Shown: piece after piece, positions 2,178 through 58,409 of the stretch
How positions within the stretch are numbered: the stretch's first letter is position 1
How the letters are laid out: every line of letters starts with the position of its first letter
DNA from: Cyanidioschyzon merolae
Lineage: Eukaryota
Assembly (NCBI GenBank): GCA_000091205.1
Contig: AP006490.2
DNA length: 64,000 bases
Direction: 5' to 3' (one strand)
Position numbers and translations under genes: made by a program
The notes under the pieces: model-generated
Database searches by the model: none
Seen by the model: the letters and a program-made list of their open reading frames with translations, nothing else
What the model was told of the DNA's origin: nothing

Positions 2178-3422
2178 ATGTTCTGCATAAGTGAACCGTT
2201 TACCCTATGTGCTTCACATACGGAACACCATAGGCGTGCATTGTGTGGCAAACAGTCAGTGTGGGGATGCTTTACAAACACGACTAGCTGGTTTGGGCGC
2301 AACCGAGGGGTCCGGAACTCGGCGTTCCTCGCTGGTGCAGCGGACGCGTTCAATTCACGTAGCAAAGCCCGGAACCTGTCGAGACGAGCTTCACTATCGA
2401 TGAAACTTCCAATGTCGTGTCGTGCTGATACGATCGGGTCGAAGCGTTGCCTGGTCATAGGTGGGACGCGCTTCAGCGGCGTCTATCTGGCGAAGGTGCT
2501 GGGAGACCTCGGCCATGAGGTCGTCCTTTACAACCGAGGCAGCAAGCCCCTTCAGCGTGTACCAAACGAGCCGGAGGGTGAGTTTGCGGCAAGAGCTGCT
2601 ATGAGCTCGACCATTATAGGTGACCGCACAAAGCCCGATGAAGTGAAGGAGAAGCTAGCATCGGAAAATTTTGATGCGATCTTTGACATGAATGGACGAG
2701 AACTCGAGGATACTCGACCATTTGCTGAGCTCTTTGCCGGAAAGATCGATCACTATGTCTACATGAGCAGCGCTGGTGTCTACTTGCAGTCGCCGGTGCT
2801 ACCACATATCGAAGGCGACGCCTGCGATCCCAAATCCCGTCACTTGGGGAAACTTCAAACGGAGGAGTTCCTAGATAGCCACGGACTGCCGTGGACCGCC
2901 ATCCGCCCGACCTACATATACGGTCCTTCGAACTATAATCCCATCGAGGAATGGTTCTTTGCTCGTATCGCGGAAGATCGTCCGATCCCAATTCCAGGCG
3001 ACGGCACCTACATGACTGGCCTGGGCCACGTGGCAGATCTGGCCAATGCGTTTGCCGCCGTACTCGGGAATCCCAGGGCAGTAGGCAAAGTCTACAACAT
3101 TCAGGATCGCAAGTCGGTAACGTACAATGGTATTGCGAAAATGTGCGCTCTTGCGATGGGACGCGATCCCGAAAGCATCCGCATCGTCCACTACGATCCT
3201 AATCGTGTGGATATCGGGAAGGCCAAGGCGTTTCCCTTTAGGTTGCAACACTTCTTTACGAGCGTGAACCGTGCGCTGAGAGAACTGGATTGGGACGTGG
3301 ACTTCGATCTCTTGGATGGTCTCCGAGATTCGTACCATAACGATTTTTTGCCCAAAAAACAAGCAGGAAAGCTTCAAGTAGACTTCAAAACGGACGACTT
3401 GATCCTCTCCCAGGTTTCTTGA
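2178..3422 (+). CDS. CSP41-like NAD-dependent epimerase/dehydratase (chloroplast stem-loop-binding protein 41 family). Alternative start at ATG 2400, with an N-terminal extension that may be a transit peptide.
   Basis: 414-aa uninterrupted ORF. Rossmann motif LVIGGTRFSGVYLAKVLGDLGHEVVLYNRG, and strong similarity over YVYMSSAGVY...RPTYIYGP...PIPGDGTYMTGLGHVADLANAF typical of CSP41a/b. Confidence 0.75.
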   Translation: MFCISEPFTLCASHTEHHRRALCGKQSVWGCFTNTTSWFGRNRGVRNSAFLAGAADAFNSRSKARNLSRRASLSMKLPMSCRADTIGSKRCLVIGGTRFSGVYLAKVLGDLGHEVVLYNRGSKPLQRVPNEPEGEFAARAAMSSTIIGDRTKPDEVKEKLASENFDAIFDMNGRELEDTRPFAELFAGKIDHYVYMSSAGVYLQSPVLPHIEGDACDPKSRHLGKLQTEEFLDSHGLPWTAIRPTYIYGPSNYNPIEEWFFARIAEDRPIPIPGDGTYMTGLGHVADLANAFAAVLGNPRAVGKVYNIQDRKSVTYNGIAKMCALAMGRDPESIRIVHYDPNRVDIGKAKAFPFRLQHFFTSVNRALRELDWDVDFDLLDGLRDSYHNDFLPKKQAGKLQVDFKTDDLILSQVS

Positions 3423-3699
3423 ACTTTGCTTGATCAGAGGAGCTGAGGCCACATTGAACAATAACCAAGTCTTACGCTTATGAGCACACTCCATGGTATG
3501 TGTACTGGATTCGGGACAGAAGCGCTAGAGGGGCGTGTGCTCCACCTGTTGGCGGGCCACGGAAAGAGCGTGCCAGTAACGTTGCCGCCGGTACTGCTGA
3601 CGGAGATTTTCGTACTCATACATGTGGACGCACAGCTTAGCCTCCTGTTCAGTAGGGCGATCCCTCAGTATCCATTTATCAGGTAGTTGAATTGGTATC

Positions 3700-4520
3700 A
3701 CCATCGTGGAGCCGGATGCACTCGGCCTATAGTATCTGACAGGGGAACAGTTTCATGCGATGCACGAACTTGCGTAAAAAATGCCCTCTCCGGTCTTTGC
3801 GAAAGCTCTTGTCTATTACGAGAACGGCGCTCCGGCTCATTGCATCATACCGGCGCTCAACTTTGCGTCTGGGCCTCGATCAGAGCGGTTTCGCTGCATA
3901 TCAGGAGTGCTTACGTACAAAGCAAATTTCATATTGAAATGGAGCGGATCTATTCAGCTAACTTGGGTATACGCGCTGAAGTTTTGGTTTCTTCCCACTG
4001 TTACCAACACCGGCGTTTGCGAGCTTTATCTGCAACTGCTTTATTTTCTCCTCTCTAGGCTTCGACATAAGATACACTGGTCATTCATTTGCCTCCAGAT
4101 CCGATTCAGCAGACGGATGATGTTGATGGCATGCTAAAATCCTGATTTCACCGCTTTCGACAGTAGTCCACATATTCAACGTGCCGGCTGTATACACGAC
4201 TGCCTTGCATACCATTTTCATCTCTATACACGGCATCGGTGCGCCCTTCGCATCTTTAGCACTTGCCCGTTGTCAGCTGTTCCTGTGTATCCATCAAACC
4301 TCCTCCGATGGTCGCTGCATGGCGCGTGAACGTCTACTTTATCGCTCGGCAGAAGTCCTTGACGGTTCCAGGAGGTGTTCGTGCATGCTTTCCTCCGTTT
4401 CTGCGCCAGATGCCATGCCTACGATCAGGGGTTTCTTCTGTAAGATCCCTTGGGCGGGTACTCTGTGTTCTGCTTGCGCAAGCGCACGCTGTTCCATTCG
4501 ATGACGCAACATTCGCCTTC
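3700..4520 (+). mobile_element. Solo 5'-truncated fragment of the Fanzor-like element family (ORF-tail remnant plus Rep2 3' module)
   Basis: 3955-3975 agctaacttgggtatacgc matches 20216-20236 agctaacttaggcgtgc. The downstream ~550 bp are colinear with Rep2 copies at 395-990 and 20235-20825, including the shared peptide MARERLLY. Confidence 0.6.
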
Positions 4521-5646
4521 TTGCACGCTCTTCATTTTCTCAAAACTCTGACTACAAAGCGTTGGCTCAAGCATGATGGGCATCGAGTTACATAAGACAC
4601 TCGCGGGTATCCTATCCATACATTCCACCCGAAAGTGATGCTGCGACGAAGGCTTCTGCAGAAGCCGTCTGTTTCGCTCGCTTCGCGAACGATTCTTTTA
4701 TTCCTTTCCTTCCTCTGATACTAGATTTAGGGGCACTCGAGCACAAGTTCTGGCGTTGGGCACAAGTCGGAGGGTTCGAAACCCGTGACCCCAAAGCGTT
4801 GCAGTTTATCGCAGGTCGGACCGCTCTTCAGGTATCATGGTGGCGCATGTGTGGCGCGTCGCTCTCCCGCGTTCCGACCTATGCAGATCGCGTTCGGTGG
4901 CAACTTTACGATGCTATGTGTCTGTATTAATCGTTATTCCTCTCGGAATTTCTCCTCCTAAGAAAGGAAGCGTATGAGCTCTAAGAGAGCCGTGAATCGT
5001 TTTGTGACGTTTGCGTTCGATGTCGGCGGGTGTCCGCACGAGATCGGTTTTGATTGAGGACAATATATCTCCTCCACGTTGCGCGAACCTCCCTTTCCCT
5101 CCTCCTGCTTTGCCATAGCATTTTTCTTGAACTACAGTCTCTTTTTTCCTACCGCGGTTCATGAGCGCTTTAACAAAGGAGGGCATCGGTTCGATCCTTC
5201 TTTACCCGTCAAGTGCATGCGCCAAACGATAAAGCAAGCCGCCATGCGCCACAGAGCGGCGCATGGAACAGAATATGTGGTGGACAGATCAGAGCACATG
5301 ACCATAGTCAAGTGTTAGGGATGCGAAGGGCGCACAAAGACTGGTTACCCTGAGAATGAAAATGGCTAGCCAGGCATAGCCCCCAGCTTTCAGATGTACA
5401 TTGCATGTGTCGAGAACATCAGGCAGCGGCGCAAACCGGACCTTTATCACTACTATCGATATCCTTCGACAAATGAGAACGGCGCTCGAGCGACACGAGA
5501 GACCGATGTATTTCAAGCCGCAGAGAATGAAAAGGAAAAGACAGCAGTCGCGGATAACCATCCCAAAGCCTTCTGCATGTGACACTGGGGAAGACCCGAA
5601 GTTTAGCGTGTGACCGCACGAGTTAGCTGAGTGGACCCGTTCCATT

Positions 5647-6384
5647 TTAGCCTGACATGGGTTTAAAGCGACGCGCAACTGGCTTGACGACGAACTGGTC
5701 TACAAGCGGCGCCAAGAGCAATGCACCCGCAATGCGAAACGGACGGGAGAAATTATTCAACAACCACATGCCCGCCACAACTTTCAAAAAGTTTTGCCAG
5801 GTTAGTGGTGCATTATCTGTCGCCCTTTTGAAAGTGATAAGTGCGATAACGAAGCTCGCTGAATAAGTGATTGCGTCGAAAAAGCCGTACGCGAGGATTG
5901 CAGCGAGCCCGTATGAACGCAGCCGTTGAAGCGCTGTTTCCTTCTCCGGGAACAAGTTAGTGAATGCACCCTGCAACCGCTTCCAAAACCCCTGTCGTTT
6001 CCGCGCTGTGTTCATGGCCTGCTCCGGAGCGCTGTCTCTCGGTCTGACAGCGTTATTCGACTGCTCCAAGCGCCGTTGCTCCAGCTGCTCAAGGTACGAC
6101 AAAGGGCGCGTACTAGTCGAGCTTGAGGAGCCATCCTCCATAGGCGGACGCCGCGTACTTTCAAGCCATTTCATATATTGGTCGGTTTGGCCGGTGCATG
6201 AAAGTCGCAACGCAAACGGAGGCGTCCTGTGGAAGCCTCGTGGAAGCTTCCGGCGAGCGCACTCTGAATCCACTGTTCGGTGTCCGTGCACGATGAAGTC
6301 GTTACGCGCTTGTTTGACTGAGGAAAACCTTTTTGCGTGCAGCGGCGCTGTGAACTGTGTTGCCGTGTTCAGAATCAAGAACAT
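5647..6384 (-). CDS. Hypothetical membrane protein (C-terminal hydrophobic domain, tentatively DUF1279/FAM210-like)
   Basis: 245-aa ORF. C-terminal region LRSYGLAAILAYGFFDAITYSASFVIALITF...AGALLLAPLVDQFVV has two predicted TM helices. No firm family assignment. Confidence 0.35.
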   Translation of the reverse strand: MFLILNTATQFTAPLHAKRFSSVKQARNDFIVHGHRTVDSECARRKLPRGFHRTPPFALRLSCTGQTDQYMKWLESTRRPPMEDGSSSSTSTRPLSYLEQLEQRRLEQSNNAVRPRDSAPEQAMNTARKRQGFWKRLQGAFTNLFPEKETALQRLRSYGLAAILAYGFFDAITYSASFVIALITFKRATDNAPLTWQNFLKVVAGMWLLNNFSRPFRIAGALLLAPLVDQFVVKPVARRFKPMSG

Positions 6385-6819
6385 TATGCTGGCTCCTTCT
6401 TGTTCTTCTCACGAGAGCAGCAGCGCAAAATAACCGTTTCTTCGAGTGATTTGAACGCAGGGTCGTCCAGGGCAGTCTCTCGTAACATGATGGACATAGC
6501 GGACAGTGCCGCATTGAATGTTAGGGCGCTCTGCGCGCTCCCTCGTGATAGCTCTTGGATTAGAGACTTCAACCAGTAGTGAAGCGAACGCTGGTTTGAC
6601 CGGGAAACCTCGGGTAGAGAGCGGGCTAGTATAGTCTAGCACAGCGTTTTCGTGGGAATGGAACGACGAGTTTTCGAAAAGTCGCGGACTCTTTGTCGCG
6701 CAACGCGGGGCTGCTCAGCGTCCTCGCAGTGCGTGCAAGCAGCAGGGTCAGAACGAGGCAGATTGGCGATTTGACCACTGCAGCTTGGCCACTCTTTTGG
6801 AGCAGTTTGCGTACTCCTC

Positions 6820-7836
6820 TCAGAACGTTTCCCTTGACAGCAGATGTTTGGCGTACGGGAGGACGCGAGCGCGCCACACCGCGCCGCGCCTCGAGAAATC
6901 GACTGCCACGTCTCTGCCGAGTGGTACGGACCAGGATTTTTGCATGACCCCAGGCGGCGAGCTCGGAGGTACCGCACGACGGCGCAAAGTTTCGGCTCGC
7001 CGGCGGCAACGCACCCTTTTGTTTGCAAAATAATCGTTCACCTGCCGCAGGGTTAACCCGCTTCGAAAGGCGAGTTCGCATTTCTCCCTCTCGGAAGGGT
7101 ATGGGTGATCAAAATGCTTGAAAAACCAGTCTTCAAGAATAGAACGGTCTGGGCAGTACGTGCAACTCCGTGATTGTAGAGTATCGCTTGTCTCGCGAAG
7201 ATCTCGCTTTGTATTGATGGATATATTCCCGCTGTCTTGGCTGCTGGAATCGAGATGCGCTGCAGATATAGGACTCGCTGGTCGGCGGCGACCAGCGCCC
7301 GTCGCTTCGGCATCTGGAAGGAGCAAGTCGAGCGTGTCCGCGGGTGTGTTGAAACGTTGCAGAGCGACCCAAGCCTGCAGGTTCCGTACATAGCAAACCG
7401 CCGCAGCGAGGGTATCCAGGATCGTAAGTATTTGTAGCTCCTCGGCGGAGGAATCTGCCGGCGGTGCCACTACTACATCTTGTACGCCGCTTGCTAGTTT
7501 TCCGAAGAAGGAATGGCTACGTACGAGGGCGAGCAACTGATGGAAAGGTACCAGCAGACCGACGGCACATACGTTCACTGGTCGCTGAAACTGTGACTGG
7601 AGACACGTATGCATTGCGCCAGCTGACTTTCGAGTTCCCCAGCAGCTGTTACCCGATCCAGGTGATAGCAGTGGCTTCTCTGCTGCTCCTCCTTGGCTGT
7701 CCATCGAAGAAACCTCGGCCTGTATGGCCGCTGCCAGGGTCTCAGGCCCGCTGTTGATACGATTTCGCTCTGTTTGTGTCTGTTTGAATGTGCAAGGAGG
7801 GTACATAATATGGCCATCCGACTTGGCGAACGCCAA
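6820..7836 (-). CDS. TALE-class homeobox transcription factor (KNOX/BELL-like homeodomain near C-terminus)
   Basis: Homeodomain signature WFFKHFDHPYPSEREKCELAFRSGLTLRQVNDYFANKRVRCRR with the PYP three-residue loop extension characteristic of TALE homeodomains. Confidence 0.65.
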   Translation of the reverse strand: MAFAKSDGHIMYPPCTFKQTQTERNRINSGPETLAAAIQAEVSSMDSQGGAAEKPLLSPGSGNSCWGTRKSAGAMHTCLQSQFQRPVNVCAVGLLVPFHQLLALVRSHSFFGKLASGVQDVVVAPPADSSAEELQILTILDTLAAAVCYVRNLQAWVALQRFNTPADTLDLLLPDAEATGAGRRRPASPISAAHLDSSSQDSGNISINTKRDLRETSDTLQSRSCTYCPDRSILEDWFFKHFDHPYPSEREKCELAFRSGLTLRQVNDYFANKRVRCRRRAETLRRRAVPPSSPPGVMQKSWSVPLGRDVAVDFSRRGAVWRARVLPYAKHLLSRETF

Positions 7837-8318
7837 CAGCCATACTGTTAAAAAGACAACTCAGGAACACGAAACGCTCTATCGAACTGGAACGGGTGGC
7901 GGCTTCTGAAAGTGGTCCATTGCCGCGGAAAACAGCTGGACTATGTCACGGCTGCTGGCGATTTGAGAAACAGCCGCGGCGAGCCCTGGCGCGTCCAGGA
8001 TCCGCGTTGTCCTTTTCGTCTATAATTGAGAGTCAGATTAAAATAGGACATTTAGCGACACGTTTTTTCCAGCATATTCTTTTTCTTTCGAACCATGTTG
8101 TTAGATACACAGCCTCGATACTCGAATTGCAGCAATAAGGGCCTACGGATTCATAGACCTTTTTGACGCTCTCGGTCTTCATTTTCGAAAAGTGCGAGCG
8201 ACTCTTTGCCACTGGAAATCGTTCCGCGACGGGAATCAAGATGATGCGCGGTGCCTTCGAACAAGGTTTCGTAAAATAACCAATTCCATGATCAGATTCA
8301 TTTGTGAAATCATCGACG

Positions 8319-8352
8319 CCTCTCCTCTCCTCTCCTCTCCTCTCCTCTCCTT
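8319..8352. repeat. (TCTCC)n pentanucleotide microsatellite, 6 units
   Basis: tctcctctcctctcctctcctctcctctcc read directly. Confidence 0.9.
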
Positions 8353-8799
8353 ACCTATCGCCTGCAACAAGCAAGCCTTCTTCAAGTGCACGATCTTTTT
8401 TCTCATGAATACCCTTGGTCACGGTAATTCGCGACCCTGGAGGGACAAGCGAAGAACTCGACGTCGTCTCATGAGGACTTTTTACCATCTCACGCCGGAA
8501 GTTTTCTGTATATGTACCGTCAAATAATCGATTCCATTCGAAGCACAAATCCTCCCCTTTTTGTGGCCAAAGAAGACACTCTATTCGACAGCAACAGAAT
8601 GATAGATTTCACGGGAAATGCTCCCAGAGGTCCCTGGATCTTCTGTTTCCATGGAACGGCGCCTCGGATTCGGAACTGAGCTATCGCAGCGATCGCATCC
8701 AGTGGGGACCGCATAAGCGCTTTGCACGATGTGAGCATAGACGGATCGAAATTTCTTGACTTTTACCCAGAATGAAATTTTTTCAGCTACTTGTTCCTT

Positions 8800-9350
8800 C
8801 GTGATAATCATCACTTTCCACAAAAATCCTCTATTGAATCGAACAGCTTGCGCTTTCATGTGCGGCAGGTAATGTTCTGGCGGAGAATATAGCCCCGGAA
8901 AGCCCATTAACGCACGATACAGCATCGGGCGAGGAAACGGAGGAGCGTATCCAGAGAACCTTTCTGTACTCTTCTATTGCATGCACGGAGTGGTATAGCA
9001 AGCGTTCACGTGCCAACGGTCGATCCCGGAGAAAAACGAGGAGTCGTGGACAAATGATAAAACCTGAAGACAGTCAAGTGCCAACTGTGCAAAGGCGCGC
9101 ACCGGGGTTGCATACAAATAAGTTGACAATGGCAAGCGATGTGTAGATCGCAGCTACCACCTGTGAATGAAATGCGTTGACAACTGCGGGAATCAGCGAA
9201 ATCGGGAAATTAACGCTGCTACCAACATCCTTCGAATGCTGACTACTCGGCGCACGATAAAACCTATGAAACGAGCAATATATCCGAGAAGAATGGCTTA
9301 TGGAACTTGGAAGCAGAGCGTGGTATGATGGATGGTTCACTGTGCGCTGA
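8800..9350 (-). mobile_element. Solo Rep2 (3' module of the Fanzor-like family) in inverted orientation
   Basis: The reverse complement of 8831-9110 aligns with Rep2 copies (ttggcacgtgaacgcttgc...ctgttcgattcaatagaggattt vs ccctgtggcacgtgaacacttgc...ctgctccattcgacagaggattcg). Boundaries are approximate. Confidence 0.55.
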
Positions 9351-9596
9351 TATCAAGCGCGCTGTTGTGGAACGATGGCCTGCGTCAACGTCTTGACAAA
9401 TTGATACGAATAACAGCTCGCGTTGTACGAACAGGAAGCATTCACTTGTCAGAGTGAGCGTGCATGAGTTGCTCATAGCCGCACCGGCGTCAAACGGGGA
9501 AGAATCGCTCTTCGCTGAACTCGAACACCTGGCTGACAGACCCTACAGCAAAAGAACGTACAACTGAGACGCGCCCCGCGTGAAACTGTTTCTGCT

Positions 9597-10124: not shown

Positions 10125-11776
10125 CGCGACCTGGTTTGGAGCCATACGCCCGAAGCGTATTAGGAAGCTCGCGGGAATGTACGAGCGCTGGTGCGTGAAG
10201 TGGAATCATCGGGGTAAGGCAATATGGAGGCCTGAGTCTCGTCCGCTCGTGACTTTGCATCCAGGTCGCATCTCAGGAAAGGTACGTAGAAAATGTTCGA
10301 AGTTGTGCTGCAGGGTCTCTTGCTCCGTAATCCAGGAATCGGCACTGGCCGAGTTCAGTGACGTACAGCCGGATACGGGACTTGTATGTAGCGGCCCGCT
10401 ACACCACTGGTAGCAACGCGCGGACCAGAAACTTGAGATCTCTACTCGAAAGTTGCCGAAACTCCTTGAATGGTCGGCATTGTTCTGACTGAGAGCGAGA
10501 CAGAAGCTGCGTGCACGTGTCAAGGACCTGATCTATCCCGCATGGGCATACGCAATCCGCTTACAGACCACGAAGGACTGTTGTTGTTGTTGTTGGAGGC
10601 ATCCAGGAAAATACCTGCCGGGGAGCCGCTGCGCGAGCCCGTGCGAAGAGCTGCGTCACTCAGATTTGTAAGGTCACTGGCTGGTACCTTGACCTGCGGC
10701 AAGTCTTCTTTCCATGACGAGGTGCTCGCTTGACTCCATGCTCGATGCGTGAATACGCTGCAGATCAGTGAAGAGTTCCCTTGCGAGGACGAATGCATGT
10801 GATAGCGCTTTCGCCTGTTGAACAAGGCTGCCGAAGAACATGACGGCTCCTTAAGGATTCTGTTCGCTTACCCAATGACATGAACGAGCATGCTCCGCAC
10901 CACAGCGGTAACCTCGCGAAGTTCCGACGAAAAACTTGAAGAATATTTTACGAGACCGCGTCCACTGAAATGATGCATCTGACGTGACGCATCTCCCGGA
11001 TCGAGTCCCATTCGACACCAGAGACGGGTCGTTCAACTACTCGGCGAACTCTTTGATCGCGGTTGAGTTCAGCGCCCACAAGGTGATGTGCGCGCTGCGT
11101 ATACAACCAACAATACCCTGAAACTCTCCGCAGAGAGGCATCATTGGGCATTGCAAACTATCAGGTGCGTTCCAGGTAACTCGCCCGTGCCTACAAGAAA
11201 GAACACTCAAATTTTGAGGTTTACGGCGTCTTTTCCGTGACATCAGGCATCCGTGGAAGTCCTGAAGCCCTCTGACTCCTGACTGGCTGTGTCTGCGCAT
11301 CCCTGGAACACAGAAATGTTTCATGCGTGTTTCACCTTAAGCGAGTTGCGAAAAAATCACGTGAACAGGCGAGCATAGAGTCCACGGGCATCCCCGATCT
11401 GGGATTAACCCCATGAATTTTGTCCCAAACGATGATACAGACTTTAGAATGCATTCACTGCTCCCGAGACGTCGAACATGCACCATGAACTCATGAAGTC
11501 TTCGACCGACGCCCGCAAGGGTATGGCAATGGCATTATCTCTCAATGCAGCGTTTGCACGGTGCTGTAGACATCACAAAGAACGTTCGCGGCAGGCACGT
11601 AGCACCTGAAGAATCGTGTAAACTGTCGAGTTGACGTCCGCGAGGTTCCGCCAAAGCGGGTCTGTCTATGTGCAGTGCTAGCACGGACGTTATTGGCATC
11701 ACAGCGGACACTCACGGCTGGCGTAAGGCTCTTTGGCGATCGTACGAACTGACCAGCATCCCCTAAGGTATGTTTC

Positions 11777-11808
11777 GGTGGTGGTGGTGGTGGTGGTGGT
11801 GGTGGTGG
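11777..11808. repeat. (GGT)n microsatellite, about 10 units
   Basis: Direct read. Confidence 0.9.
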
Positions 11809-14800
11809 CTCGCGGAACATGCAGGTTTGATGCAAAGTGGTAACCGCTTCCCTTGCTACGAAAAACCATCTCGCAAACTGGAATTTTCTGGTTAGGTTCA
11901 ACGATCGCACGGACTCCAAAAACAGCTGACGACTGAGTGCTGTTGCCTCTGACCTGAGCGGCGCCCCGTTTCCCCTCCGGCGATGCTGGCGGAAGCTTGT
12001 ACTGAGACGCTTGCACCAAGATTCACCCCAGAGGCGCGCAGCATCTGCGACCAGACCGCAATAGCGCGTCTACAAACTCGAACAGACGGAACTAAGAACT
12101 GTTCGAAAAGAAGGTCGCGGGACACGCCGTCTCTGACGTCTCCGGGCGTAGCCGCCGCTACCCAGAGCGCACGCCGTCTGTTCACGCTAACAAGTCGTTG
12201 CAACTTGTGTATGATGCCGCAAACGGTTCCACGGCATTGAAGGCCTTTGGCAAAGGACGCGGTAAGATCAGCACCTGGAGCATTGCTGTTGAAAAAGAAT
12301 TCGCATTCCGCCCGGGCCTATGAGGAGCATTGTCCAGGAGACAAGCTGCGACGCCGGGTTCGCCACAAGACCCCGGCATTGAAATATGCTCTACTCGGAA
12401 TAATATTTCTGGAATACCTCTACCTGGATACCATTTCTGTGCTTGTTTGTATCTCTCGAAGGTATTCAACAAAAGGATACATCCTATGCACTGGAGAAAT
12501 GTTGAGCGAAGACATTATGCTGTTAATGGAAGTTTGCTACAAAGCGCTCGCTTGTCCAAGACAGTCATTCGAGCGATAGCAGGAGGATGAACTGCTCTTT
12601 TCGCAGTCCTAATCCTGAACGTCCTGCACCAGAACGGAACTCATGAAAATGCTATCTATGGGACTGTATAGTGGTCAATCCGCTCCACTCTATTCCTTCT
12701 GTGGAAAATGCTTCCGAAGAAGACAACGGATATGAAATATCCGCACCATTGATACGAACGACAGTGAACAATTGCTGATGGATAAAGAGAAAACCACGCT
12801 TTTTGGAAGACCGCTGCGCGTTCAAAAGCACACGATCGATTTCGTGCTGAAACGCGAACGCTTATATCATGCAAAGCTAATGATCGTCTCACCTGATGAG
12901 ACTTCATTCGGGAGGAATGGCATCTTTTTATGTGAGTCCTCCAAAAAAGGGAAACTGATGTTCGTGAAGAAGAGACAAGCGAGCATGCCGACAACTTCAG
13001 CATTAGCGGAGATTCTGCCGTGCGGTCGACTATAAATCGCCAAACGAACAGGACCATTGAATAATTCATGCTGCGTCGAAGCACTTTGCGGCCTGTACAT
13101 TCCACATTCTTCCGTCCTGCTCTTCCACAGCTTTGCTTTCCATGACTAAAATATGTTCATCGATTACACAGCTGAGATTCGTGCTGAGCTGCTCTTTTTA
13201 CCAACCTCTGATCCTCTTTCAAATCAGTCGAAGGCGCCTCCTTTTTCGAACGGCATTTCTACGCGCACAGATCGATAGACGACTCGTCCGTATCTTTGAT
13301 ACCCATGATCCTTCATAGGTCGTTCTCTACAGTCTCCAGCCCTGACCTGCTCTGCTGCTTCTCCGTGCGTGGGCATGTGGGAGCGGAGAGCCGCGCTGCG
13401 GTCCGTATGCATCTTCGCTATGGAAAGGTGGCGACGATGTACTCGAGGAACGCCAGATACGTGCAAATATAGAAAAGGCAAGTTTCGGTCCCATCGGCCA
13501 TCCAGCGCCTCCGAATTAGGCGAAAAAGAACGAATATCGAGGTTTTTGACTACAAAGATGCCACCACGCCAACTGAAGAAGCTGTGACCAAGGAGCAGAT
13601 CTCTGAGAACGAGTATAAAGCATTCAAATAACTTCGCGGAGAGCATTTCTGGAGCTCCTTCATGCTCTCTCGTTTAGAGGCCGGATAGCGGGAAGAATTT
13701 TCCAAGGACGACGGAGACCGATGGAATTTCAGTCTGTATGGAACTTGCGAAAACCTAAGCCTGGAATGAGCAACGAAACCCGTTTCCAACCGTTCGGGGT
13801 AAGGGAACAGAAATGCATCGTGGGGCGCGTCGTAGCCGTCTCCGTAGGTCTTAATCAAGACGAAGGAGCCCAAATTCTCAACAGAATGCGTACGAATCCG
13901 TTCAATTTATCCAGGCCTCGTTATAATCGGGAGGCGGCCATGGTCACCACCCTGAGGCATACTAACAAAGGGATGACGGCTTCAGCATACGAGTCTCGAC
14001 GCTCTGAGCACCGCTTCGAGAAGCAGAGACGCCTTGCACGCTTCTTTCCCGATAGTGTACATGAACTTCCATGGGGCTTTTTCGAACGATGTATGGCTTC
14101 GGTACATAAAGGTGTGCTGGGGTCAGCGACGGTTTCGGGTGTACGGCGGTAAGAGGCGTGCATTCGCCAACTAGTGCAATAAGTCGAAGAGGAATACAAT
14201 GGATAATTCGCGTCGTTTGGCGGTAGCATACGGTGCTGGTCGTGCTGGAGCGCGCAATAGTTGCGCTCCTGCTCCTTCGACGAGAGCGCACAAGGAGTGC
14301 AGGAATCATCCTGCGCGATTCCAATCGATACATTCGGTACGACGAACACGGTTCATGAGTACGAGTACGCACTGAAACAGTTGGATAGGAAGAGAATGAA
14401 CCAGGGACAGACGCACGAGATGTTGTGCGGTCAACTGCATGGACGTCAGATGGAGAGGCAACCGATCACGAGTTACTTCCTAAGGTTTGATGCTACAAGC
14501 GGCAATGCGCAAAAGCTCATCCCGTGCCGATACTTCAGCGCCTCGATTGACATCCGGAAATGTATCGTGCTTTCGGCGCCTTCAGTGGCTTAGAATCAAG
14601 CGAACGTTCGAGGGACTACTTTAGTATTGAGTATGAGCATTTTACTGGAACGCGTATCGCCTCTGATGAAAAGAAACAGTTGTCAGGAGAGAATGGACTG
14701 CATTCTAGACTGGAGGAAGACGCTGGAGCGATACGGTGCAGATATCCAGCAAAGCCACAGCGCCGTACCTATCCACGTAAAACGATTCTCCCAAGCAACT

Positions 14801-16710: not shown

Positions 16711-17399
16711 TTTTAGAGATCCGTCGCTTGAGAAACAAAGGAACGCGGCACACTATGAAATCCGGCTACTTGGAAGTGCGGATACGAACGATCAAGCGTG
16801 CAGAGAGATAGATCGGTGCGCTGCAGAGCTGATCCACGCTTCTCGGAAGTGCTGAAACAAAAGATCAAGCGTACGATGAACCAGATCACTGCCTCGCGGA
16901 CCTGATACACGCACAACTAGCCAGATCGAGCGCTACTCAAGTTCTGCACAGCCGTTGACTCTTCCAGTACCTTGGAGACACCAGGTTTTCAAAGCGCTAA
17001 CAAAGTTGCAGTTTAGCAGATCTGAAGAAGATCACAAAATCTCTCAACAAACGTATTCGAATCAGGATTACCAGGAAAAAACTGGTCACCGATAAGTCAC
17101 GATTCCGCGTACCAGGTGTGGCGTTCACGAATCCGTATCTATTGTATGCGCTGCTGCGGCGTCATCGCCGAGTGGCATCTCGCCGTTCGGTGAGGGATTC
17201 GTGGAGGCGTAGCGGTGGACGCCTGCGCTCGCCGCGCCTCATCGTGCGGCCTCCAGAGCGCATTCGATTCGCGATGCTCTGCGGCGTGTTTTGATTCTCT
17301 TCCGATGGACAGAGCGTCGTCGCCATTGACCATGGATTCCAGCTTGCGGGATGGATATTTTCATTCGGGAAAGCGTGCATCATGCTGCTGCACCCGACC

Positions 17400-17950
17400 T
17401 CCAAATTCCATTATTTATACTTGCTTTCGGGTGTACTGGTCGTTTTGTACGTTCCATCGTGTGCCGAGAACTTGACTGCACCCGCCTTAACGCTTATACC
17501 GCCGGAGCAGATGCATCACGGAGGCAGAACAGCGTTGCCATACCGCTGAGGGCGTCGGCTCGAGGCGTGGTGCAACTGACTTGGAATCTGGATTCAATAT
17601 CATTCTGGGCTCCTGAAAGTTGTGCTGATAGACCTACTGCCTGCGGCAGCGCGAAGCGATACACTAGGAGTCCACTGCGAACAGTGTGACGCTTAGGCGC
17701 AGCCCATCTGCTCATAGTTCCTGAGTGAACTGCGTTTCGGACATGCTGCTCAGATCTCGCCACAGCACCTGCCTCTGAGGGAGCGTATGAAGAATTCGCC
17801 TAGCAGACTCGTCCGGCTCGCTGGACCTTACGCCTGTAGGGTAAACTTTCGACATTACGGAGAGCTTTTCGTGCTTTTAACGCTTACCGTAGAGGGGCAA
17901 GGAGATTGTTATCTCGTTTCGAGTTCGTGGTCAGCCACTGTTCTTTTTAT
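17400..17950 (+). repeat. Rep1 copy A: ~550 bp interspersed repeat that forms the 5' module of the Fanzor-like element at 17400-20825
   Basis: Colinear with 51400-51950 (ctatcgtgtgccgag...cacggag.cagaac.gcg.tgcc.tacc...gggcgtcggctcgaggcgtg...ctaggagtccactgcga...ctcgccacagcacctgcc...agactcgtccggctcgc) and, over its first ~170 bp, with 56230-56400. Confidence 0.7.
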
Positions 17951-18211
17951 GCAGCGCGGTCGAGACACGCACCACCAAACCGAGCAGGAATGAGAAACGA
18001 CGCGCATCTCGCGGTTGAAGGGATATGCGATCCTGATCATTATCGCGTAGTTCTAAATTACAAGATGCGTCCAGGCTGAAGCCATGACAAAGTATAGTGT
18101 TTCATCTCAATTGTTTTTCGACCATCAAGTCAGTGTATTCACGTGATTTTTCGGGGCTTTATAGCAGAAGCGTTCTAAATACGTTCGTTTTCAAAGATAA
18201 GAAAGGAAAAA

Positions 18212-20220
18212 TTGGGGGGTGCAAGTCGAGGATCCTGGAGGGCCGGTATCGTCGGCTGCCGTAAAAAAAACGAAAAACAGAGCAGCATAAAGGGCAGCAA
18301 GACAAGACGAAGAACCAGAAGCAAGAGGCTATCAGAAACCGTGTCGCGTCCTCCTCCATGGGTGTTTGGGAGGCTTCTTCAAGGACGATGCATTTGGTGA
18401 AGGAGATGGATCGCGACGTCGCGGATATCAACACAGTCGAGGCTCCGGAAGAATTTTTTAACAAGACCTTCATCTGTCTCCTGATGCTTGACACGGGGGA
18501 AACGTCGAGGAGAAATGAGGGAGTGCACGCCCTCCACGAAAATCACGCCGAATTCCACTTCAACAAGACTAGATACAGGGGTGACGCGGATATTTATATT
18601 TACGGGGCCATCAAGTGCCTCATGAACCTGAAGAACCACTTGGCCATGAACGTCAAACGCTTCATGATACGTTCCATCTTTGCACCCTAGCCGGGCCTGT
18701 CTCGGAAAGAGATATGAGCATCATAAACGGCATCACGAACGATAGTAAGAATGAACAGGAGATCGAATTCGTCGACAAGAAGACATCACACAGGAGAATG
18801 AATGAAGCTTCTGTAAACCGTACGACTATTAAAGAGCACCGCGCGGCTCTGGGGCTGGTCAACCCAATAGAGAACGTATCAGATATGGAAAAAGATAAAA
18901 AAAGCTGTTCCCTTATACTGCGCTATGCCGTTTTTCTGAACCGAGAGCATGAACGCAAGGCAGTGATGGAGCCGGATGTGGAGCATAATGAAGAGTCGGA
19001 GAAATGGAAGGCTGCGCTTCCAGAGAAGCGCTTCAACGTCGTTCCGATATGCAACATCAAGTCGCATTTTGTGGCAATCGACTCCAGCGTCCTTCATGAC
19101 ATTATGAAGAGGATCAGTACGGAGTTCGATATAAGGAGGGAGGAATTTATTGGTGAAAACCCGTAGACTTACTGGTAAATTATATTCGACTTGAAGCGCG
19201 TCAACACGAGCAAGAGAAAGATTTTCAGGGCGACGATCGAAAGCGATGGAATCTCGGTATATGTGCACCCTGCAGGCGCCTAAAGGTAGATCGTCCAGTT
19301 CCGTCTTCGTTTTCGCACTTGACGGAGCAAGCAGACAAGAACGGGGTCCTGATGCGTACAAGGCACAGGAGAACGACTTCGTAGTCGGCGCGGATCTCGG
19401 GAACACGAATGTCATGACCGTAGCAGTAGCCAAGTGTGGGGAAGCTGGCATCGAAGGCAACTTACGACAAAAGGACATGCGTCTTTTAAAGTTCTCAATA
19501 GCGAGATACTACCGAGAATCGGGAATGGTGAATCCGAAGGGAAAAAGATAGAAATGGATCTCAGGAGTGAAGGGGCATCTGGGAGCGATCAGCCTGGTGA
19601 CTAGTCGAAGTGCGAACTTTCCAGCTTTGCGGGAATTCATGAAAGTTCGTGCTGCTCATGACGAGGAGCTGTGGAAAGAGTATACAAAGCCCCGGTGGGC
19701 TCGTCAGCGTATGAAATTGTACCATGGGAAGCGACATGCATTCTCCAATCTCTTCAACCAGTTGAGCGCTATCAAAGAGACCAAGAGTCAAAGGCTCGTA
19801 GTAGCATCCGGAGCAGGACGCTGAGCGTCAGGAAAAGGGAGCATACCGATTCCGTCGACTCCAGCGTACAAGGAGTGCGCACACCGTTTTGTCACAATAC
19901 TGGTAGGTGAGTTTCGAATGTCATGCATAGACCACGAGCTGGGGTGTAAAGTTCAGAAGGTCGAGATGGAAAAGTGCCAGCGGAGCGCTGAGGATATAGA
20001 AAAGCACGGAGAGCTGACAGAACAGGAAATGGAACGCAGGGCGCAAGTTCGAGGACGACACGCATTACTGATTACAGCCAACGAGCAGAGAAGCATGGAG
20101 TTCGTGAATCGAGACTTTGACGCCGCTACAGATATATGGAGATATGCGGTGCCGGAGAGGAGACTCCCGGCGCTGATGGGAGCGAATTTTCTCGAAATAC
20201 CACATAGCGAATGCATGTAG
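18212..20220 (+). pseudogene. TnpB-like (Fanzor-like) RuvC nuclease pseudogene, copy 1, broken into at least five frames
   Basis: Fragments 18358-18690, 18615-19166, 19246-19551, 19567-19824 and 19918-20220 are colinear with the copy-2 protein. It retains GADLGNTN (RuvC-I-like) and FVNRDFDAATDI (a degenerated NAAINI motif). Confidence 0.65.
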
Positions 20221-20931
20221 CTAACTTAGGCGTGCTTTCTAAGGATTAGTTCTCTCCCTGCTGTCATCAACACCAGTCTTTGCGGGATGTTCCTGCGCAT
20301 GCTTCATGTTTCTCTCTCTTAGCTCCGGCTTGGGATACGCTGGTGTCTCTGTTCCCAGCAGTTCTGCTGCCAAGAGATATTGATCGTTAATCACATTTTT
20401 CATAGCCAAATTTCGCAATGTCCGGCTATTACTGACGAATTTCATGCACAGGTGCAAGTCGCGATCGACGCTTCGCTTGCCATTTCCATCGTATTGTTTA
20501 CACGACCTGTGCCGCCTCTGCACCTGTGGCAATTTGCTCCAGTCCGGCGTACCCAGATGTCGATCGAACCTTCTTCGATGGCTGCCCTGTGGCACGTGAA
20601 CACTTGCTTTAAAGATCGGTGCACACCCTTGAGAGGTACAGAAGGCTCCGCTGGATGACCTCCTACTTTTCTGTTCCAGGTGCCGTTGCTTAGGGTCATG
20701 GGTTTCGTCTGGGAGACACCCCTGGCAATTACCCTGTCCGCTGCATGCGTCATCGCGCGCTGCTCCATTCGACAGAGGATTCGTTGAACGCAATACTTGT
20801 CGTGGCGAAACTAGTGCCAAAAGGAGAATTCATGTTGGAGAAAACGATGAGCGTTTTCGATCCGTTGACGCCCCGACGTGCAAAGCTATGACGCACGCGT
20901 CACTGGAAGTGATCGCTGCGATGACTGATGA

Positions 20932-21486
20932 CTATGCCCAAGACCCTTTTCCATGCAAACAGAAGAGAGGAGAGCCTCTGGGAGCAGATCCTGCGAGATG
21001 TATCATGTTTTTGTCGAATGTCGTTTCTTCTGTGACCATAAAGAAAGAAAGATTCGTATTTTGAACGAAATGGATTATTTGGCGTGAAAGGCTAAGTGAA
21101 CTTTTGGTATAAACTTGCGAACAAGTCTTCAGGAGACCACAACGTCGAATGTTTTTCGCTCGTCGATCCACCTGCTCGAATTGTGACGCCACGAGTTGCT
21201 TGGAAACACCAAGATCGATAACTTGAAGCATGCGTGAATTGAACATGCCGCACGTAATGAAAGGAGGAGAACGCAACCTTGCACTTCTGAACTGGATGAT
21301 TTTTTTCGATTCTTTTACGAGCCCTCGTTCGAGGGCATCGCGTATCACTTTGGTTTCGGTGACGTGACGAATTCCATCGACAAAAAGATTCGAGAGCGTT
21401 TTGCCCGATAAACAAGCGAGAATCCTAAGACTTCCTCTGAACCCATACGCCCTCATTACTGTGCTGTGAGTGTCGAGGCAGCGCAT
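20932..21486 (-). CDS. Hypothetical protein (184 aa), no confident family
   Basis: ORF only. Weak Rossmann-like stretch LRILACLSGKTLSNLFVDGIRHV. Confidence 0.2.
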   Translation of the reverse strand: MRCLDTHSTVMRAYGFRGSLRILACLSGKTLSNLFVDGIRHVTETKVIRDALERGLVKESKKIIQFRSARLRSPPFITCGMFNSRMLQVIDLGVSKQLVASQFEQVDRRAKNIRRCGLLKTCSQVYTKSSLSLSRQIIHFVQNTNLSFFMVTEETTFDKNMIHLAGSAPRGSPLFCLHGKGSWA

Positions 21487-22970
21487 CTACAAAACCTGAG
21501 AAAAAAGAAATCTTAGGGTAGGAACAGAGCGCGCAGCTCACTTTTCTATTTCTTTACTGAAACGAGTCTAAAAGTCCATGAAGGACCGTGTGCCCGAAAG
21601 AGAAAACCGTCCCGAGTCTGCGTTGCTCGCTGATGTCGTGATTGAAACTCGATGCTAGACGTATTCTTTACTTACGAGATTTTCCAAATGAGCCCATTCC
21701 AGAAACCTGTTGGTGGCTGCTCGATTTCTAGAGCCAGCTTGTGCACGCTGGCGGCCACCAGGTACAGGAAGAGCTAAACGCAGACTTGAAAAATAGGCCG
21801 CTCGGCAAGCAGGTGCCAACTGGCCAACGTAGCGCCCTAAGCTGCTTTGTAGTCGCACCTAACCATTCCATGCAGGATCGCAGAGGATGCAATTCATCGA
21901 TAGCTCTCCACCGTTGCGTGAGCATGCTTCCAATTCAACAACACGCTGGTATCACATCGGATCCATATACTGCATGCAGTTTTGCGAAGCATGCATCGAA
22001 CGAATGCATCGCTATCGATCCTATATACATTTTTGCATTTTCATACTCGTTTGTACTCCGTTTCGTGTTGTCCATGCGCTCATTTCCAGATTCTCGTCAA
22101 TTATCCTGGGTATTCGCAGATGGTGCAAGTCAGCGAGCATCCTGCAGCTGCCCCAAGTGAGATGCATTCTGTGAGCTCCTGGGTCCGAGTCTTCAAAATT
22201 ACATTGCTGACGGTTTCACTGCCAGAAAAATTATCTTCCGAATATTGACCGATCCTCAATTGCCACGGGAACATATCCACGCTCGCCGACAACGGGTCTA
22301 CTTGCGTAAGAGCAGGATCAGGCCGTGTATACACATCCGAGGATACCGTGCGAGCGCTCCAGTGAGCCGTACACCAAGTGTCTCTGTTCCGTGATATACG
22401 GTTAGCTCTAAACCGCAGTTCTGCCTCTATCGATGCGGTAATATGAACTTGAAACAGTCCTCCAGTAGACTTTTGCGGCAGAAACAAAGTAATCTATGCA
22501 GAAGCGTTTTTTTGCCCCGGAAACGCTTCTGAATAGTCGTTAGGCGTGATCGTCATCCGCTGAGGATGCAAACGCCTATCCGTAGACATCGTCTGACTTG
22601 AGTGCAAAACTCAAGCACGGCAGCACCATAACTTTGTGAACCTCAACAGGTCCCGCGCTTTGAGACACGCAGCCTGCACGCGTGTCGCCGACTCCACTCG
22701 AGCGCTGCTCGGCATATCGGGTGTTTTCAGCAGTCTCACAGGTCTTCTAAACACACCCCACACGTTGAAGAGAGGGCTCGCTGCCCTTTCTTTTTATAAG
22801 CCAGTGATCAGCGCTTGCCCCCGCAAACTACCTCGAGCAATTATCTGCAACGCACAGAGCGTACAGCTTAATGGACGGCCATTGAGATGTGCGCTGCGGC
22901 ATCGCTGTAGCCGCCTGGCAGCAAACACGCCGCTCGATGACGGTGGACTCTCGCGACTTGCAAACACGCG

Positions 22971-30025: not shown

Positions 30026-30260
30026 AATATCTATGCACGCATATCCCGAATCATGAATAAAGTGCTGTGCTGTCTATCTATGCACGCATATCCCGAATCA
30101 TGAATAAAGTGCTGTGCTGTCTATCTATGCACGCATATCCGAATCTTGAATAAAGTGCTGTGCTGTCTATCTATGTATGTATATCCCGAATCATGAATAA
30201 AGTGCTGTGCTGTCTATCTATGCACGCATATCCCGAATCATGAATAAAGTGCTGTGCTGG
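30026..30260. repeat. Tandem repeat, ~47-bp unit x ~5, each unit containing AATAAA
   Basis: Unit atgcacgcatatcccgaatcatgaataaagtgctgtgctgtctatct is repeated head-to-tail, with one unit carrying a 1-bp deletion. It lies ~380 bp downstream of the ferlin-like stop and ~170 bp upstream of the kinase ORF. Confidence 0.9.
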
Positions 30261-51399: not shown

Positions 51400-51950
51400 C
51401 ATGAAGCACCAGCCTTCAAGTTCCATTACCCATACTTCCTCTCGGATAGACTGGTCGTTACGTATATTCTATCGTGTGCCGAGTGTCTGCCTCGAGCACC
51501 CGCCATAGCGCTTATATACCGCTGAAGCAGGTGCTGCACGGAGACAGAACGGCGCTGCCGTACCAGTCAGGGCGTCGGCTCGAGGCGTGATTCATCCGAC
51601 GCGGGGTCCGGGAACATAACCATTCTAGGAGCCTGCGACAGTGCGAACCGATCTACTAGGAGTCCACTGCGACCAGGGCGACGCCCGGATGCAGCTTTAC
51701 TGCGTCTATTCCCAGAATGAAATGCGTTGTAGAGGAGCTGCGCACGTCTCGCCACAGCACCTGCCACAGAGATAAGCATGAAGCACTAGCTAGCCCTGCA
51801 GACTCGTCCGGCTCGCGGGACCTTCCGCCGAGAAGGTAAACCTTCGAAGATACGGAAGCTTTTCCCCTATCAACGCTTATCATACAGGTCGAACGAAACT
51901 GTTATCGAGTTGCTAGTCAGTGGTTAGATTCTGTTCTTTCTTCCCCAGGA
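51400..51950 (+). repeat. Rep1 copy B: solo copy of the 5' module of the Fanzor-like family, ending ~50 bp upstream of the DEP/DUF547 ORF
   Basis: Colinear with 17400-17950 over its full length. Confidence 0.7.
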
Positions 51951-58398: not shown

Positions 58399-58409
58399 TA
58401 TATAATAGA
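58399..58409 (+). promoter_or_regulatory. TATA-like motif (gtatataatag) in the conserved leader, ~55 bp upstream of the first ATG of the nuclease gene. The copy-1 counterpart ctttatagcag is at 18157-18167.
   Basis: Conserved position in both element copies. Promoter function is inferred only. Confidence 0.35.

Follow-up and report, generated by a model that had tools for sequence, protein, structure and literature searches.

A decayed Fanzor1 transposon copy in Cyanidioschyzon merolae that has probably lost its 3′ end beside an unrelated repeat

RESULTS

A probable old copy of the CMe-1A transposon

We conclude, with a probability of roughly 0.85, that positions 17291-20217 of the window (the whole 64,000-nucleotide stretch of DNA analyzed) are an old, strongly mutated, 3′-truncated copy of the CMe-1A Fanzor1 transposon, that the true 3′ end of this transposon is a short tail, and that the repeat adjoining the copy (Rep2) is unrelated to it. 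Going by sequence, the window belongs to the C. merolae nuclear genome: three flanking window proteins match BAM79750, BAM79760, and BAM79763 of C. merolae 10D at 100% identity. CMe-1A is a C. merolae Fanzor1 family of ~150 copies of ~3 kb, which are ~80% identical to their consensus and lack terminal inverted repeats (TIRs) (Bao & Jurka 2013, Mob DNA 4:12; PMC3627910). Its first (5′) 635 bp are TE-N2_CMe, itself dispersed separately in ~70 copies (PMC3627910). We assigned the unit to CMe-1A, and its 5′ module (Rep1) to TE-N2_CMe, by way of this published description, using host, length, position, and the existence of solo copies (PMC3627910). Compared by description, the two agree in host genome, in a ~3-kb Fanzor1 unit with many copies ~75-87% alike, in the absence of TIRs, in the separate dispersal of the 5′ ~635 bp, and in the decay of most copies, with a few intact; no conflicting feature was found. 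Family copies are 73-87% identical in pairwise comparisons, and the length from Rep1 to the tail is ~3.3 kb. At least 298 stretches matching the family were found in metagenomes, with at least 30 copies in contigs of one metagenome. The family is already known, having been published and in Repbase since 2013; the finding therefore chiefly confirms a known transposon.

Copy 1 retains a 5′ module, a leader, and a shattered gene

The first of two nuclease copies in the window (copy 1) has the following parts:
17291-17950, plus strand: Rep1, the 5′ module of copy 1, fitting the TE-N2_CMe description (BLAST, boundaries, and alignment)
17951-18204, plus strand: non-coding leader, comprising the 5′ UTR and a putative promoter region bearing a degenerate TATA-like motif
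18205-20217, plus strand: decayed Fanzor1 open reading frame (ORF) with many stops and frameshifts

A module is indeed present where the sequence-only reading had placed Rep1 (17400-17950). In 24 of 44 matches across loci, the module begins sharply at 17324-17326, and a multiple alignment of 18 copies with their flanks moves the start ~30 nt further upstream; a start at 17400 therefore lies ~80-110 nt inside the module. The leader proposed at 17950-18357 is real, since 17951-18357 matches 58226-58524 (BLAST; 69% identity, E = 1e-24) and the leader is present in 58 of 84 related loci. The order Rep1, leader, ORF also recurs: of 21 copies from one metagenome that have readable upstream sequence, 8 have Rep1 immediately 5′.

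That the ORF is shattered was confirmed with the family HMM, which finds six pieces in different frames within 18265-20217, and tblastn with the protein P0001 gives 4 pieces with 48-58% identity. At the DNA level, the ORF is ~73% identical to the second nuclease copy (copy 2) at 58666-60741. Intact relatives point to an N-terminal extension, with the ancestral start ~165 nt upstream of the ATG chosen in the sequence-only reading. Homology to other family copies ends at 20167-20202, and the ORF is short of ~45 3′ codons plus the 3′ UTR. We found no empty site for copy 1 in the eight strains or assemblies examined, all of which carry the same arrangement.

The true 3′ end is a short tail with a terminal hairpin

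Copy 2 has the following parts:
58190-58445, plus strand: non-coding leader with a 5′ palindrome of the GCGCTCGGTGAGCGC class (alignment of 47 leaders)
58446-60877, plus strand: nearly intact Fanzor1 pseudogene
59660-59963, plus strand: 75-bp (25-amino-acid) acidic tandem repeats in the ORF, directly before RuvC-I
60721-60950, plus strand: true 3′ module (tail), comprising the last ~55 codons and ~75 nt of UTR; candidate ωRNA scaffold and right end
60914-60935, plus strand: terminal hairpin, ACGTTTTTC-TTTT-GAAAGACGT, at the 3′ end (per-copy folds)

The copy 2 leader (conservation, 0.73) has a TATATAA-like motif ~60 nt ahead of the ancestral ATG. The gene is interrupted by a frameshift within its N-terminal extension and by in-frame stop codons at 58940 (TAG) and 60713 (TGA). 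Copies 1 and 2 are both pseudogenes, and neither can yield a functional protein. Two very old ORF relics, both missed in the sequence-only reading, were located with the HMM:
13678-14372, plus strand: Fanzor1 ORF relic, HMM positions ~319-524
46132-46545, plus strand: Fanzor1 ORF relic, HMM positions ~472-563

After the ORF, 76 of 84 related loci and all 30 copies from one metagenome have a tail of ~230 nt, made up of the last ~55 codons and a UTR of ~75-85 nt with a hairpin at its end. Matches to the tail end in clusters at 60902, 60936-60940, and 60949, and conservation drops to 0.35 past 60950. Most copies have the 3′ hairpin, some keeping a hairpin at the same place with a different sequence; its median ΔG is -11.5, versus -6.2 in flanks, with z < -2 in 16 of 42 copies. 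The ωRNA is located at the 3′ end of the Fanzor gene (Saito et al. 2023, PMC10432273), and by analogy the tail is probably where the ωRNA and the right end of the C. merolae family lie, which makes it a candidate for both. The RNAalifold consensus fold of the tail is weak (-5.4 kcal/mol). Helices drawn by hand are 79% paired, yet column-based covariation in the tail is not above that of shuffles, in part because the hairpin has two variants that do not line up in register. Conservation of the 3′ UTR (0.64) is not above that of third codon positions, and an Rfam scan of the whole window matched no family. The host is a thermoacidophilic red alga that retains a few intact Fanzor1 copies.

The ends of the unit were also searched for transposon hallmarks. 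No inverted pair links both ends in L024 (one of the related loci), copy 2, or copy 1, and no target-site duplication (TSD) is visible for the C. merolae family. The unit consists of a single gene and has no transposase gene. A longer upstream region common to some loci (L040) was inspected by eye for a transposase and held only host-like fragments.

Rep2 lies outside the Fanzor unit

Rep2 occurs in the window as follows:
20206-21494, plus strand: older non-coding dispersed repeat adjoining copy 1, outside the Fanzor unit (coverage profile)
417-1541, plus strand: copy with no adjacent nuclease
3943-4501, plus strand: partial copy with no adjacent nuclease
8202-9177, minus strand: inverted copy
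63557-63834, minus strand: inverted fragment, missed in the sequence-only reading

The 3′ repeat had been placed at 20235-20825, beginning at the ORF stop. A repeat does start there, at ~20206, but its end is at ~21494 rather than 20825; it is ~1.3 kb long, and its best-conserved stretch in the coverage profile is 20900-21400. None of its four other copies in the window adjoins a nuclease. Copies proposed at 330-990, 3975-4520, and 8800-9350 exist, at 417-1541, 3943-4501, and (inverted) 8202-9177, but 9244-9350 is Rep1. Repeat matches in the window are far beyond chance but old (64-73% identity). A coding origin for Rep2 was rejected because all six tblastx frames score alike, and we treat Rep2 as non-coding.

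Copy 1 had been thought to bear every module of the family, with Rep1, leader, ORF, and Rep2 forming the full-length unit, Rep2 being its conserved 3′ end and solo Rep2 copies being 5′-truncated or internally deleted derivatives. This arrangement fits the start of Rep2 within a few nucleotides of the end of the copy 1 ORF, and it fits L017, a non-orthologous locus in which a 3′-truncated Fanzor gene, the second such case, has Rep2 after it, oriented as in copy 1. An inverted Rep1 fragment adjoining inverted Rep2 (9177-9350) likewise resembles an internal-deletion derivative. However, the module that follows the gene in the 76 loci and 30 metagenome copies described above is the short tail, and Rep2 is found in 0 of those 30 copies. 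Across the 84 loci, the first part of Rep2 is present in 4 and the second part in 17, at varying distance and orientation. The window's other nuclease copy, copy 2 (58190-60950), ends in the true tail and lacks Rep2. The last ~90 ORF codons, reported at 1-330 and 3700-3975, are undetectable there by tblastn (best E, 0.06-0.7), blastn, and a six-frame search with the family HMM; the solo Rep2 copies, which have no ORF remnants upstream, are not 5′-truncated derivatives of the nuclease element. The two Fanzor-Rep2 junctions fall at unlike tail positions (~+25 and ~+130), and copies of Rep2 (64-68% identical) are more diverged than those of the nuclease (73-87%). A full unit ending in Rep2 is thus already largely refuted, and we regard it as highly improbable. 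In copy 1, the true 3′ end is absent and Rep2 stands in its place; therefore, on the 3′ side, neither the ends proposed earlier nor the ~3.4-kb unit that they define is correct.

The arrangement in L017 means that the association of copy 1 with Rep2 may not be pure coincidence. An old sub-lineage could have taken Rep2 in place of the tail and been copied as a composite, with copy 1 and L017 copy 1 as its survivors. The rest of the tail, which a simple insertion of Rep2 would leave downstream, was not found in copy 1 or L017, and these two non-orthologous loci share order and orientation. With ~73-75% identity to all others, both copies rank among the most diverged, the family clearly tolerates alternative 5′ flanking modules, and TE-N2_CMe becoming the 5′ part of CMe-1A would be a parallel. 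Against such a sub-lineage, the junctions lie ~100 nt apart between the two loci, which argues for independent events; the two copies are 73% alike, which is no more than they share with other copies; and only 2 cases occur among the ~90 copies examined. We consider a composite sub-lineage quite unlikely and favor the loss of the tail from copy 1 beside an unrelated Rep2.

Rep1 is both a separate repeat and a 5′ partner of the gene

Further Rep1 sequences, and an alternative module, occupy these positions:
51309-51943, plus strand: solo Rep1, directly upstream of a DEP/DUF547 host gene
56191-56400, plus strand: Rep1 fragment (approximately Rep1 positions 45-250), upstream of copy 2
9244-9350, minus strand: inverted Rep1 fragment adjoining the inverted Rep2 copy
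56401-58189, plus strand: c2_up, a 1.8-kb repeated module directly 5′ of the copy 2 leader

The first two of these bear out the additional Rep1 copies suggested at 51400-51950 and 56230-56400, which BLAST recovers at 51343-51939 (70% over 632 nt, E = 3e-76) and 56219-56400 (E = 3e-13). Rep1 is ~630-660 bp long, is present in 36 of 84 related loci, and occurs by itself as well as joined to the leader. The c2_up module is an alternative 5′ neighbor, also found immediately ahead of the leader in ~10 related loci, with 86-98% identity in L005, L015, L019, L020, L026, L030, and L043. No conserved TAM-like 5′ flanking motif was evident by eye upstream of the leader or Rep1.

These variable partners bear on where the mobile unit begins. 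It might comprise only leader, ORF, and tail (~2.75 kb), with Rep1, c2_up, and the other upstream classes being independent elements or targets that it landed beside or recombined with. The start of the leader is a breakpoint common to at least five unrelated upstream sequence classes, copy number drops stepwise going upstream from it, Rep1 is sharp-ended on both sides and occurs alone, and in some loci part of Rep1 also lies inverted just upstream of the leader. However, copies bearing Rep1 form a recognizable subfamily with its own leader variant, so Rep1 was copied along with the gene. Internally deleted copies retain a complete Rep1 fused to various points of the ORF, as if Rep1 were a functional 5′ end, and the published consensus includes Rep1 (PMC3627910). 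We therefore see the shorter unit as a possibility, albeit a doubtful one. The sequence-only reading took as its own refutation that Rep1 and Rep2 be repeat families independent of the nuclease and next to it only by coincidence, and this holds in part. Rep2 behaves as such a family; Rep1 is an independent family and also the 5′ part of one subfamily, as published.

A complete member of that subfamily would then consist of a ~640-bp module that is also the separate element TE-N2_CMe (Rep1), a non-coding leader of ~255 nt, a Fanzor1 gene of ~2.3-2.4 kb encoding a basic, NLS-like N terminus, and a tail of ~230 nt ending in a hairpin. Copy 1 would have lost its tail and been joined at ~20202 to an unrelated, older Rep2.

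The gene encodes a Fanzor1 protein

The gene had been called Fanzor-like, and profile, fold, and catalytic residues all identify it as Fanzor1. A 65-sequence family profile matched Fanzor1 structures in the PDB (9cf0 [PpFz], E = 1.7e-20; 8gkh [SpuFz], 6e-12; 9cer [GtFz], 1e-7). PDB searches with single proteins (phmmer) and with a 10-sequence profile matched no Fanzor, and neither the window ORF nor ten relatives had a significant match in Pfam or NCBIfam (best scores, Cas12f1-like_TNB, E = 0.0023, and guided_TnpB, E = 0.14). The precomputed Pfam label of the family is DUF8286. We used an AlphaFold model of P0001, which is 76% identical to copy 2 (pLDDT, 79.5), for a Foldseek search of the PDB; the best seven entries were all Fanzor1 (E = 2.8e-16 to 8e-14; target-normalized TM, 0.70), followed by Cas12 proteins. 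The RuvC D-E-D residues (D414, E579, and D621 in P0082 numbering) are invariant across the 65-sequence alignment. RuvC motifs, including NRDLNAAINIR, are kept in copy 2, and the region of the RuvC glutamate is destroyed by a frameshift in copy 1. Conservation by codon position is 0.84-0.87, 0.86-0.90, and 0.74-0.79, including the C-terminal extension, indicating that selection acts on the protein, with that extension.

The family thus resembles characterized Fanzor1 proteins (SpuFz1, 8gkh/9ceu-9cez; PpFz, 9cf0-9cf3; GtFz, 9cer-9cet) in profile-level sequence similarity, modeled overall fold, D-E-D RuvC triad, and basic N terminus. As in other Fanzor1 systems, the gene lies on the 3′ side of the transposon, and conserved sequence continues beyond the stop codon. 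In contrast, identity to the Fanzor1 structures is only 12-15%, and the zinc-finger cysteines are reduced (HH...C...C in C. merolae copies and none in P0082). The C. merolae family also differs in having the acidic 25-amino-acid tandem-repeat insertion before RuvC-I; the repeats differ in number between family members and are disordered in the AlphaFold model. By analogy with characterized Fanzor1 and TnpB systems, the family protein would be an ωRNA-guided RuvC DNA endonuclease. Its ωRNA scaffold would most likely be transcribed from the tail, and the guide from the DNA just past the right end.

DISCUSSION

Beyond the published description of CMe-1A, our analysis adds the 3′ tail and its hairpin, the alternative 5′ modules, and the 3′ truncation of copy 1 beside another repeat. 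The anatomy is thereby corrected: the real 3′ end is a short, hairpin-ended tail, not Rep2. This correction is useful for repeat annotation in C. merolae or in a search for the ωRNA of its Fanzor1. Given that C. merolae lives at ~42-45°C and low pH, a Fanzor1 that was active, tolerated heat, and had a defined guide RNA could be of interest for genome editing.

Two other groups of elements share parts of this organization. In Mucor circinelloides, the Fanzor1 family MCi-2 consists of young copies that are almost identical and have TSDs of 11-12 bp (Bao & Jurka 2013, PMC3627910). Like the C. merolae family, MCi-2 joins a constant Fanzor-coding 3′ region to several 5′ regions, lacks TIRs, and is unclassified; in contrast to MCi-2, the C. 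merolae family is old, with no TSD visible. With the TnpB-only (non-autonomous) IS200/IS605 elements of bacteria, the family shares a lone nuclease gene, the lack of TIRs and of any obvious target-site duplication, a palindrome or hairpin at the 3′ end, a palindrome where the core unit starts (in C. merolae, the leader), and, by analogy, an ωRNA that would overlap the 3′ end of the gene. However, the C. merolae family resides in a eukaryotic nucleus and has no known Y1 HUH TnpA, and its unit is much larger, with variable 5′ parts.

How the family transposes is a modest question, on which three features bear: its 5′ partners vary, its 3′ end is constant, and it lacks TIRs. One rather unlikely scenario is that the tail encodes the ωRNA and that this hairpin-ended unit, with swappable partners at its 5′ and occasionally its 3′ side and with neither TIRs nor TSDs, spreads by a single-strand or hairpin-dependent route or by Fanzor-triggered recombination or homing. 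If true, such a route would be one not described for eukaryotic transposons, and it would explain why the class of the family has been unknown since 2013.

The nuclease gene fits a described Fanzor1 family

Three proteins encoded in the window are residue-for-residue identical to C. merolae 10D proteins (BAM79750, BAM79760, and BAM79763), and on this basis we judged the window to be nuclear DNA of C. merolae. Its ORFs are long and intron-free and lie on both strands, G+C is ~55%, and several hot-spring metagenomes hold contigs nearly identical to it. The sequence-only reading had proposed a mobile unit ordered Rep1, leader, nuclease ORF, and Rep2. Self-BLAST of the window showed that the first three are real repeats.

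Features of the window, with self-BLAST matches
17291-17950, Rep1, the module 5′ of copy 1 (17324-17946 matches 51343-51939 at 70%, E = 3e-76, and, as a second match, 56219-56400)
17984-18283, leader of copy 1, between Rep1 and the ORF (matches 58226-58524)
18321-20167, ORF of copy 1 (matches copy 2, 58666-60741, at 73%)
~20206 to ~21494, Rep2, adjoining the ORF end of copy 1
417-1541, Rep2
3943-4501, Rep2
8202-9177, inverted, Rep2
63557-63834, inverted, Rep2
56401-58189, 1.8-kb repeat directly 5′ of the leader of copy 2
58190-60950, copy 2, including the tail at 60721-60950

Single-sequence searches and Pfam/NCBIfam returned nothing significant for the nuclease. The family, whose public precomputed label is DUF8286, has 2,734 cluster representatives (50% identity) at E ≤ 1e-3, and a 65-member profile matched the solved Fanzor1 proteins of Parasitella (E = 1.7e-20), Spizellomyces (6e-12), and Guillardia (1e-7). 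P0001, an intact relative with 76% identity to copy 2, was modelled with AlphaFold (mean pLDDT, 79.5). The seven top-ranked PDB matches of the model were all Fanzor1 (E = 2.8e-16 to 8e-14; target-normalised TM, 0.70), with Cas12 proteins ranking far behind. The RuvC aspartate, glutamate, and aspartate are invariant in the family, and copy 2 has all three.

One Fanzor1 family, CMe-1A, has been listed for C. merolae, with ~150 copies at ~80% identity to a ~3-kb consensus, no TIRs, TSDs undetermined, and some copies still intact; its 5′ 635 bp match a second element, TE-N2_CMe (~70 copies), over that element's full length at 95% identity (Bao & Jurka 2013, PMC3627910). By this description, Rep1 (~640 bp, 5′ of the gene and also dispersed alone) resembles TE-N2_CMe, and the arrangement of Rep1, leader, and ORF fits CMe-1A; these assignments are consistent with the published elements. 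The profile, fold, RuvC triad, and Rep1-leader-ORF order thus bear out the gene family and 5′ architecture recognised from sequence alone.

Outside C. merolae, the closest intact relatives (L093, L096, and L098-L101; 30 to 40% identity) lie in giant-virus-like contexts, some on GVMAG contigs of 242 to 344 kb, with neighbours that include D5_N primase, HNH, 2OG-Fe oxygenase, and RNase_T genes. At L093, a DDE_3 transposase gene is immediately 5′ of the Fanzor gene.

The 5′ side is modular

BLAST placed a sharp 5′ edge of Rep1 at 17324-17326. Multiple alignment, which the sequence-only reading had recommended, added ~30 conserved bases 5′ of this edge, so that Rep1 starts near 17291. The recommended search for TIRs revealed none, and no conserved flanking motif was seen.

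At the leader start (CATCGCGCTCGGTGAGCG...), a shared breakpoint, the upstream sequence of the related loci falls into at least five classes: Rep1; the 1.8-kb repeat; a ~780-bp module that has, on its own 5′ side, an isolated copy of the final ~100 nt of the tail; a class carrying an inverted Rep1 piece; and unique sequence. In one metagenome, Rep1 was directly 5′ in 8 of the 21 copies with upstream sequence available. The 1.8-kb repeat, found at copy 2 and ~10 related loci (e.g., L015, L019, L020, L026, L030, and L043) at 86 to 98% identity, is an alternative 5′ neighbour; by eye, its short ORFs have no recognisable domain. Rep1-bearing copies have a leader variant of their own, and some of them carry internal deletions that join a complete Rep1 to differing points of the ORF; this favours Rep1 being a true 5′ end of one subfamily.

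At several loci (L044:2836-3683, L072:428-1270, L023:377-1225, L040, and L071), a solitary copy of the final ~100 nt of the tail, with its hairpins, stands ~750 to 850 nt 5′ of the leader across a conserved spacer, so that direct copies of the 3′ terminal sequence flank these elements on both sides. Whole copies also commonly form tandem pairs in the same orientation (L044, L046, L055/L067, and L036).

Most copies are pseudogenes of a once-selected gene

The ORF of copy 1 is shattered, as had been described; its pieces, six or more, lie in different frames. It is far more damaged than copy 2, in which the reading frame shifts near the start and is interrupted by in-frame TAG (58940) and TGA (60713) codons. 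A long ORF is kept in only 2 of 27 anchorable copies (L004 and L009, apparently the same copy); most family copies are pseudogenes. Conservation at codon positions 1, 2, and 3 (0.84 to 0.87, 0.86 to 0.90, and 0.74 to 0.79; 29 nonredundant copies) indicates that the protein was under selection in the lineages that produced the copies.

The ancestral start codon lies ~165 nt 5′ of the ATG chosen in the sequence-only reading. Part of the supposed leader is therefore coding. The added basic N-terminal stretch (MKKQVHDPGGP...ARKKQK...RRRRQERR) looks like a nuclear localisation signal.

Directly before RuvC-I, 75-bp tandem repeats (59660-59963; also in P0001, P0005, and P0008) encode acidic 25-residue units, disordered in the AlphaFold model. 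Their number varies among family members: copy 1 and distant relatives have none, and P0008 has more than five.

Beyond copies 1 and 2, a six-frame search with the family HMM recovered nothing but two very old relics of Fanzor1 ORFs that are new to this analysis (13678-14372 and 46132-46545; ~40% amino acid identity to the family), which share a weak DNA match (14152-14460 with 46151-46463). A marginal match at 9167-9325 (+) (E = 0.03; NRD..NAA..NI region), on the strand opposite the inverted Rep1/Rep2 fragments, is probably due to chance.

Copy 1 is truncated beside an unrelated repeat

We mapped the modules of both copies onto 84 loci (80 related loci from metagenomes, drawn from at least 298 matches, and 4 others). 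The ~180 to 230 nt after position 60720 of copy 2, the tail, are present in 76 of the 84 and directly follow the gene in all 30 copies on contigs of one metagenome; Rep2 occurs in none of those 30, and so is not the 3′ end of the family. The final ~55 codons lie in the tail, where the codon-position pattern marks them as coding; a UTR of ~75 to 85 nt comes next, and conservation falls to background right after 60950. The alignment of copy 1 with the rest of the family stops at ~20202, where Rep2 begins; copy 1 has lost ~220 nt of its 3′ end.

The repeat does start at the ORF end, as claimed, but continues well past the proposed 20825. Its copies are ~65% identical to each other and show no reading-frame preference, and its two halves were found in 4 and 17 of the 84 loci, with neither distance nor orientation fixed. 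Neither tblastn, blastn, nor the six-frame HMM found the ORF remnants reported at 1-330 and 3700-3975, and 9244-9350, taken for Rep2, is an inverted Rep1 fragment; the supposed derivatives were thus misassigned.

At L017, a nonorthologous locus (1-3123, compared with window 18388-21376), Rep2 likewise comes after a 3′-truncated Fanzor gene, with order and orientation as in copy 1. However, the junctions differ, falling ~25 nt into the tail in copy 1 and ~130 nt in L017, and the rest of the tail was not found after Rep2 at either locus. We read the two junctions as independent rearrangements, or insertions with deletion; a small, old composite Fanzor-Rep2 lineage is a less likely reading. We concluded that the feature is real and of an ordinary kind: copy 1 is a decayed and truncated representative of a Fanzor1 transposon family already in the literature, and it lies beside an unrelated repeat.

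With three Rep2 copies and one Rep1 fragment inside 9 kb, 1-9400 is a repeat-rich patch; host genes are densely packed elsewhere. A 47-bp intergenic tandem repeat (30028-30259; five copies, 94% identity) has no relation to the Fanzor1 finding, and two short, near-identical simple-sequence stretches far apart (11776-11810 and 40851-40891) probably represent microsatellites or coding sequence of low complexity.

The tail as a candidate RNA

Characterised Fanzor systems derive their ωRNA from the right-end region of the transposon; this RNA may overlap the stop codon, and the 3′ flanking sequence serves as its guide (PMC10432273). A terminal hairpin folds in most copies of the tail (median ΔG, -11.5 kcal/mol, versus -6.2 in flanks; z < -2 in 16 of 42) and is kept in two sequence variants; it also occurs in a few unrelated sequences at the same place. 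RNAalifold gave a weak -5.4 kcal/mol, covariation was not above that of shuffles, the UTR did not exceed third codon positions in primary conservation, and Rfam had no match; given these results, we infer an ωRNA role for the tail only provisionally. By homology, the protein would be an ωRNA-guided RuvC DNA endonuclease, and the tail is the obvious ωRNA candidate in the C. merolae family.
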